IMG/VR virus record: IMGVR_UViG_3300042301_004035
Reading direction: 5' to 3' (one strand)
Source: a virus
Taxonomy: Duplodnaviria; Caudoviricetes
DNA: 64,000 nt
Shown here: positions 61,314 through 61,389 of the stretch, piece by piece
Layout: each line of letters starts with the position of its first letter
Numbering within the stretch: the stretch's first letter is position 1
Translations under genes and position numbers: made by a program
The notes under the pieces: generated by a model
What the model saw: the letters and a program-made list of their open reading frames with translations, nothing else
The model's database searches: none
What the model was told of the DNA's origin: nothing

Positions 61314-61389
61314 AGGGCGGTATACCCTCACTCTTATAAAGTGTTGAAAGGTTAGTTGGTCCACGTGGGTTCAATCCCCACCCGCCCTA
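61314..61389 (+). ncRNA. tRNA-like element with a TAT anticodon-type loop and rearranged arms
   Basis: 7-bp acceptor AGGGCGG/CCGCCCT, T-arm GTGGG-TTCAATC-CCCAC, CT-TAT-AA hairpin placed before a D-loop-like AGTTGGT. Confidence 0.55.

Follow-up and report, generated by a model that had tools for sequence, protein, structure and literature searches.

Positions 61314–61389 (plus strand) of a 64,000-nucleotide stretch of phage DNA (the window) raise the question of whether an RNA that carries the parts of a tRNA in an unfamiliar order can still decode. The preliminary description of the locus read it as an 'arm-swapped' tRNA-like RNA with a perfect acceptor stem and T-arm, a CACT-CTTATAA-AGTG hairpin close to the acceptor and a D-loop-like AGTTGGT 3′ of this hairpin, just before the T-arm. 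All of these are present: the acceptor stem has 7 bp and the T-stem 5 bp, the hairpin (61329–61343) begins 8 nt past the 5′ strand of the acceptor and AGUUGGU lies at 61354–61360, 5′ of the T-arm. The length of 76 nt up to the discriminator, described as lacking CCA, is likewise correct; the bases after 61389 are CTA, and the CCA end of the RNA would have to be completed enzymatically.

Layout and setting of the rewired gene

The term 'arm-swapped' captures the rearranged order and misses its nature. There is no D hairpin anywhere in the element. An extra 3-bp helix, overlooked in the preliminary description, joins element positions 11–13 (ACC) to 37–39 (GGU) and encloses the anticodon arm (Table 1); its strands are those of the D-stem, and the D-loop is a single-stranded junction segment that runs on through C48 to the T-stem.

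Table 1. Coordinates of the rewired gene, its parts and two ordinary tRNA genes in the window.
Feature	Position	Strand	Evidence or remark
Ordinary CAU tRNA	57847–57920	+	ARAGORN; not an initiator; C4-G69, C5-G68
Ordinary tRNA-Thr(UGU)	60998–61070	+	ARAGORN; 243 nt upstream of rewired gene
Re-threaded tRNA-Ile(UAU) gene (putative)	61314–61389	+	Layout, Rfam match, covariation, RNAalifold; family model 88.2 bits (this sequence is itself part of the model's training alignment)
Acceptor stem 5′ strand (1–7), then U8 A9	61314–61320	+	7/7 pairs show two-sided changes (acceptor-stem pairing doubled as a search filter)
D-stem-equivalent strand ACC (place of canonical 23–25)	61324–61326	+	Pairs with 61350–61352; leads directly into anticodon stem
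Anticodon arm: U·U 27:43, 4-bp stem, 7-nt loop C32 U33 UAU A37 A38	61328–61344	+	
Anticodon UAU	61335–61337	+	
Conserved NGAAA bulge/linker from anticodon stem 3′ strand to second D-stem strand	61345–61349	+	
D-stem-equivalent strand GGU (canonical 10–12)	61350–61352	+	Covariation, RNAalifold, nearest-pair comparison
Relocated D-loop: U13, A14, G15, U16 U17, G18 G19, U20, C C, A21, C48	61353–61364	+	
T-arm, 5 bp, loop UUCAAUC	61365–61381	+	Same sequence as T-arm of the window's CAU tRNA
Acceptor 3′ strand (61382–61388), discriminator A73 (61389), genomic C74 (61390)	61382–61390	+	

The window comes from a large phage genome and is 84% coding when read with table 11; its two WhiB genes suggest an actinobacterial host. 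The element is intergenic (it overlaps no ORF of at least 40 aa) and is flanked by the tRNA-Thr gene and a WhiB gene (61406). ARAGORN, one of the checks that had been proposed, calls six other tRNAs in the window and misses this one, and Rfam RF00005 matches with 30.9 bits (gathering score 29), leaving the D arm unaligned and requiring a 17-nt insertion; no other Rfam family passes its threshold there. The single-sequence fold is unremarkable (z = −1.23) and not significant, which leaves conservation to argue against chance.

A sigma-70 promoter and terminator scan found nothing at the gene. The hexamer CGAATA, about 20 nt upstream and present again in five close relatives, may be a promoter or processing signal; the motif CGAATA...TAATAT was found once, matching chance expectation. 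Between the tRNA-Thr and rewired genes lie two tandem structured elements (61072–61162 and 61172–61256; z = −2.7 and −3.3) that have similar layouts, are kept in the complete relative G008 and belong to no Rfam family; one RNA contig spans the second of them and the rewired tRNA. A 9-codon mini-ORF (MSTNRIGSR, about 61279–61308), preceded by an AGAAAG stretch, includes an AUA codon. A leader-peptide model for it is unsupported, the frame being kept in the closest relative only.

Covariation and the re-threaded fold

An exact search of IMG/VR with the 15-nt anticodon arm returned dozens of genes with the rewired layout, together with chance matches and ordinary cloverleaf tRNA-Ile(UAU) genes that have the identical arm. 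A search pattern with arm and stems unconstrained gave many further copies among the IMG/VR matches listed and, in GTDB genomes, 78 stretches, the majority of them true copies, in Cytophagales isolates, Saprospiraceae, Planctomycetota, Actinomycetota, Firmicutes and candidate phyla, mostly within tRNA arrays. Cultured phages that carry the gene are represented by about 80 Streptomyces phage records (GAU) and Rhodococcus phage Peregrin (UAU; MH153807.1, about 93496–93571); the copies in these records are almost all unannotated, and the GAU copy of Streptomyces phage EGole (MK494112.1, 75265–75341) is mislabelled tRNA-Leu. The final set holds 276 distinct sequences from 344 places in phages and bacterial tRNA arrays, counted as sequences, not as independent events, and from loci that are partial. 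A tRNA on the same strand lies within 500 nt of 132 of 221 copies. The family at first seemed limited to isoleucine, since IMG/VR-wide scans with GGT required in the D-loop gave 0 and 1 matches with anticodons other than NAU. That picture was an artefact of the GGT requirement: a scan for GG not followed by U yielded 88 arginine members.

The search patterns imposed G7-U8-A9-U10, C14, GAAA, UA, GG and GUUCRA, and acceptor and T pairing served as filters; U8, A14 and GG, fixed in this way, are unable to show covariation, and a possible C14-G33 pair varies too little for it. Element positions 10, 14, 33 and 40 show hardly any variation even where the search leaves them open, and with the linker G of GAAA left free almost no exceptions turned up. 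The helix 11–13/37–39, by contrast, played no part in filtering. Among 177 sequences it occurs as CCC/GGG (57), CGG/CCG (38), CUC/GAG (36), ACC/GGU (14), UCC/GGA (9) and others. In 125 diverse sequences 99.7% of its cells are paired, with many two-sided changes, and the whole structural model is 98.2% paired, as against 35–46% in slid controls. RNAalifold, unaided, predicts the same nested fold. The top 16 pairs by mutual information are 15 stem pairs and a Levitt-like pair, the counterpart of canonical 15:48, between position 42 (the purine after the conserved UA) and position 51 (before the T-stem), which is A-U in 98, G-C in 69 and otherwise composed in 10 of the 177 sequences; in the present copy it is formed by G 61355 and C 61364. 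In a comparison of disjoint nearest pairs, a rough control for relatedness, both partners changed jointly 37, 46, 24 and 23 times against 1, 2, 1 and 7 one-sided changes, whereas mismatched control pairs gave 11 joint changes versus 38 and 10 versus 37. Compensatory changes occur in every helix of the family, and since the alignment is nearly ungapped, covariation as an alignment artefact is implausible. The 7/5 acceptor/T branch is found in all aligned members, C32, U33 and A37 are each conserved at 99%, and the 4-bp anticodon stem is accompanied by a U·U at 27:43.

These findings bear on the suspicion of a decayed or scrambled tRNA pseudogene, or of an integration-site remnant, which could account for the low Rfam score, the ARAGORN miss and the weak single-sequence fold. 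The preliminary description would have accepted it in the absence of expression, processing and conserved homologues; its proposed homologue search has produced 276 distinct relatives and near-perfect covariation of the enclosing helix, and in G008 (complete, 216 kb) the match extends over all 76 nt without a difference, against about 80% identity in the flanks. On conservation, decay is ruled out for practical purposes and is the least credible reading of the element; the RNA contigs described below give a faint signal of expression.

The covarying pairs allow each piece to be placed on canonical numbering, and the chain then runs 1–9, 22–44, GAAA, 10–21, 48–73. In the fold predicted from the alignment, the four-way cloverleaf is re-threaded to a three-way junction in which the D and anticodon stems form one bulged hairpin. 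After the acceptor and U8-A9 the RNA would have an extended irregular arm, in which the 3-bp D-equivalent helix, the GAAA bulge and the anticodon stem-loop follow one another, and then the D-loop strand and the T-arm. In ordinary tRNA the D-stem stacks on the anticodon stem. This geometry, the covariation of 15:48 and the identity elements that track the anticodon lead us to infer a normal L shape despite the rewiring: the D and anticodon helices would stack as in ordinary tRNA, and the moved D-loop would dock on the T-loop, with G18/G19 contacting 55/56, U8 contacting A14 and 15 contacting 48.

The one-to-one match of the parts to canonical positions would also be expected of a precursor that is cut and rejoined to an ordinary cloverleaf, as in permuted and split tRNA genes. 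To become a cloverleaf, the internal pieces of such a precursor would have to be cut three times and ligated three times. The order of the acceptor strands is normal and only internal pieces are rearranged, which sets the gene apart from the permuted and split classes; splice-like motifs are absent, the conserved GAAA linker is better explained by a mature fold and no joints occur in the RNA contigs (a weak argument at their low depth). We regard rejoining as extremely improbable; the re-threaded fold is probably that of the mature RNA.

Identity elements, isoacceptors and decoding

The 184 copies with an NAU anticodon (143 UAU, 27 GAU and 14 CAU) have U20 in 182 cases, A73 in all and a genomic C74 in 182; a scan across IMG/VR turned up no copy that combines U20 with C, G or U at 35. 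The 88 copies with an arginine anticodon (UCU 40, ACG 30, CCU 10, UCG 6, CCG 1, GCG 1) all have A20, with the neighbouring next base free to vary, and 83 of them have G or A at 73. A full genomic CCA is present in 19 of the former and 49 of the latter. According to PMC9976931, A20 of the D-loop is the main arginine determinant in bacteria, and ArgRS therefore appears to find the moved loop at the place of the D-loop. The sole Ala(UGC) copy, a single case from a metagenome, has G3·U70, which none of 275 other copies has and which is the alanine determinant (PMC9976931). Val(UAC), with the loop UUUACAU, occurs in three distinct sequences. These re-assignments of the scaffold to alanine and valine are located at L348:421–497 (−), L349, L350, L351 and L310.

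For isoleucine, the E. coli identity set as given in PMC9976931 (A73, A35, U36, A37, A38) is complete in the 61314–61389 copy, as are the minor determinants U20 and an equivalent of U12-A23; position 38 is C in 76 of the 184 NAU relatives. Measured against these E. coli rules, from which the host enzyme may differ, the copy has U34 in place of G34 or lysidine-C34, and G4-C69 and A29-U41 in place of C4-G69 and C29-G41. A UAU tRNA is a poor substrate for E. coli IleRS and, when unmodified, misreads AUG on the ribosomes of E. coli; UAU-permissive enzymes are those of Mycoplasma mobile and probably of bacteria with a eukaryote-type IleRS (PMC3575796).

Rewired genes and ordinary genes with the same anticodon tend to exclude each other. 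Among 117 loci that contain five or more ordinary tRNAs, and that are partial and related so that p-values are optimistic, the two occur together in 2 of 114 cases, compared with 27.8 expected under permutation; for UAU the figures are 0/42 versus 18/75 (p = 2.5e-4, optimistic for the same reason). Mutual exclusion of this kind is the pattern of replacement. The anticodons of the family are ordinary bacterial and phage ones (UAU, GAU, CAU, UCU, ACG, CCU and UCG), and their choice obeys wobble rules: ACG, not GCG, dominates the arginine CGN box. In the complete relatives G008 and G010 the rewired gene is the only UAU/GAU tRNA, among readers of mostly A-ending codons; the other tRNAs of G008 are Arg(UCU), Leu(UAA), Asn(GUU), Lys(UUU), a CAU tRNA, Thr(UGU) and an odd Gly(UCC), with no ordinary UAU or GAU gene.

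The exclusion pattern weighs on the proposal that the RNA is a mimic or decoy, i.e. a non-decoding L-shaped molecule, bound or even charged by a synthetase, that soaks up a tRNA-attacking defence enzyme or signals to a T-box or RelA. Phage tRNAs have been proposed to counter host tRNA nucleases (PMC10264068), some carriers such as EGole also have ordinary isoacceptors, the family is nearly limited to isoleucine and arginine anticodons, and its unusual invariant features (the U·U at 27:43 and the GAAA bulge) could suit a special partner. A decoy would, however, be expected to accompany its target, yet the same-anticodon genes are mutually exclusive, as replacement predicts; the choice of anticodon follows decoding rules, and acceptor, discriminator and T-arm are all intact. 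We consider a decoy unlikely.

Identity elements, mutual exclusion and the position as sole UAU/GAU gene in a complete relative are three independent signs that point to a charged, decoding tRNA. Together with the covariation they lend good support to the earlier suggestion of a rearranged functional tRNA-Ile(UAU), and we conclude from these sequence comparisons that the gene very probably encodes a functional phage tRNA-Ile that reads AUA on a re-threaded chain. The RNA would be cut out of a longer transcript, receive its CCA and depend on the IleRS of the host for charging; neither IleRS nor TilS is encoded by the complete relative, and a search of five related virus records, of which three are complete, turned up no TilS and no class Ia synthetase. 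AUA decoding would in this way be supplied during infection without lysidine. Close relatives have RNA-library contigs over the element in three metatranscriptome studies (X1 61159–61387, X9 61283–61392, X3 in two pieces), which is compatible with transcription; the contigs are of low depth, DNA carry-over is possible, the runs contained 4–17% of the words and X4 does not cover the element.

Of the isoleucine codons in the window, 37% are AUA, which amounts to 26 per 1000 codons overall. Its use is strongly partitioned by gene: the ORFs 34058–36799 (57 Ile codons), 37020–37556 (10), 39942–40985 (24) and 2197–3255 (19) contain no ATA, and in several large minus-strand genes ATA accounts for half or more of the Ile codons.

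A role in a recoding system of the phage had also been raised; the RNA might act as reader of a frameshift or missense event or deliberately read AUG as isoleucine. An unmodified UAU is able to pair with AUG (PMC3575796), and the odd tRNA-Gly of G008 carries UCCG in its anticodon loop (L472; G008 105772–105844). Against this, the anticodon loop is a standard 7-nt UAU loop, unable to pair with CGGN, and the scaffold recurs in unrelated Streptomyces and Rhodococcus phages and in the arrays of Bacteroidota, Planctomycetota and other bacteria, a distribution far wider than the phage group, so that no link to recoding is seen. The window reads well in table 11 and needs no stop-codon reassignment; a check for frame breaks, too crude to carry weight, gave ordinary overlaps and one CGG site, with no ATA in the overlaps. 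Recoding is very unlikely, and a tRNA for regular AUA decoding is preferred. A similar low-scoring Gly gene is present in G010 as well (L473).

The CAT tRNA noted earlier in the same phage is the ordinary CAU tRNA of Table 1, which has its full 17-nt T-arm in common with the rewired gene and, by E. coli rules, may be closer to tRNA-Ile2 than to elongator Met. EGole has ordinary GAU and UAU genes besides its rewired GAU gene. The idea that bacterial carriers might lack TilS was rejected, TilS being found in 5/5 checked. Given this redundancy, the TilS of the bacterial carriers and the Ile2-like CAU tRNA, there may be more to the retention of this wiring than codon supply.

Known tRNA variants and a possible reason for the wiring

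To our knowledge, the order of acceptor, D-arm, anticodon arm and T-arm is treated as universal in cytosolic decoding tRNAs, and the known exceptions lose arms or alter stem lengths. The rewired RNA shares with canonical elongator tRNA-Ile (RF00005) the 7/5 branch, the 7-nt anticodon loop, U8, A14, R15:Y48, G18G19, A21, the T-loop and A73, and its CACU-CUUAUAA-AGUG arm is identical to that of cloverleaf phage tRNA-Ile(UAU); it differs from canonical tRNA in having a three-way junction, no D hairpin between acceptor and anticodon arm and no variable loop. D-armless mitochondrial tRNA-Ser(AGY) also forms a three-way junction, with an extended anticodon arm right after the acceptor, and has lost the D-stem and the contacts between D- and T-loops. 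The rewired RNA keeps D-stem pairs, G18G19 and the Levitt-like pair in moved positions, and the covariation of its D-equivalent helix and of 15:48 separates it from the D-armless class. In tmRNA the D-loop lies 5′ of a long helix and an anticodon loop is absent. The tRNA-like domain of tmRNA (RF00023) resembles the rewired RNA in its acceptor and T-arm with a stemless D-loop strand, but RF00023 scores 17.6 bits here against a gathering score of 47, ARAGORN finds no tmRNA and the 76 nt are closed by the acceptor.

Allo-tRNAs and selC* tRNAs of bacteria and phages, among which UAU is a common anticodon, have an 8/4 or 9/3 acceptor/T branch (Mukai et al., PMC5389517); the rewired RNA has a 7/5 branch and an altered core order, and pairing between its base −1 and A73 is not under constraint. 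YrlA Y RNA, found in bacteria and phages, contains a tRNA-like domain, its gene lies near Ro60 and the RNA is tethered to Ro60 (PMC4201824). Unlike YrlA, the rewired RNA ends in a free acceptor and carries a cognate anticodon; no Y RNA Rfam family matches it, and no Ro60 family was found among the 10 neighbouring ORFs. A parallel in anticodon is tRNA-Ile2(UAU) of M. mobile, a proposed AUA reader without lysidine or TilS (PMC3575796), but that is a host tRNA in a cell that lacks tilS and whose IleRS and ribosome are adapted to it, whereas the rewired RNA is borne by phages and arrays, also in TilS-bearing bacteria.

The rewired family is widespread in phages and bacterial tRNA clusters; no description of it was found in the open literature (subscription papers lay outside the scope), and a term search of a 2023 tRNA-identity review returned no such fold. 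As judged from sequence, it is a structural variant of tRNA that is probably functional. Resistance to tRNA-attacking host enzymes is our leading guess at the reason for keeping the wiring. The full proposal has two parts, that host synthetases, EF-Tu and ribosomes accept a non-cloverleaf chassis, and that this chassis is kept as its re-threaded core escapes host enzymes whose targets for recognition or cleavage are ordinary tRNA-Ile and tRNA-Arg. The first part, a working non-cloverleaf tRNA, is highly likely; the two together are offered tentatively, as a possibility more doubtful than probable.

A second wiring that preserves the core contacts would, if true, mean that the translation apparatus reads shape rather than chain order, and would provide a natural test of which D-arm contacts are needed by synthetases, modification enzymes, RNase P and tRNA nucleases. 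The cultured carriers (Peregrin and the Streptomyces phages) make the rewired tRNA experimentally accessible, and it is a possible scaffold for engineered tRNAs. As ARAGORN calls only 3 of the 276 family copies, the tRNA sets of phages and arrays are undercounted, which affects analyses of codon compensation and of anti-defence functions.

Further subfamilies, apparently with the same nested topology and other linkers, comprise GAU copies in Saprospiraceae arrays (L240:7210–7286, L259:4553–4629, L300:4506–4582), UCU copies (L310:2534–2608, L077:2128–2203, L280:2181–2254) and one long-linker UAU copy (L106:2519–2600). Low-scoring tRNA-like sequences without an ARAGORN call were seen at L341 ~26020–26100 (EGole ~88020–88100), G009 87161–87235 and G010 189848–189943, with scores of 37 bits (model R1) and 27.8 bits (RF00005). 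In EGole a nucleotidyltransferase gene (gene 107, L231:2464–2985) ends 13 nt before the rewired gene, a possible link to CCA addition or repair.
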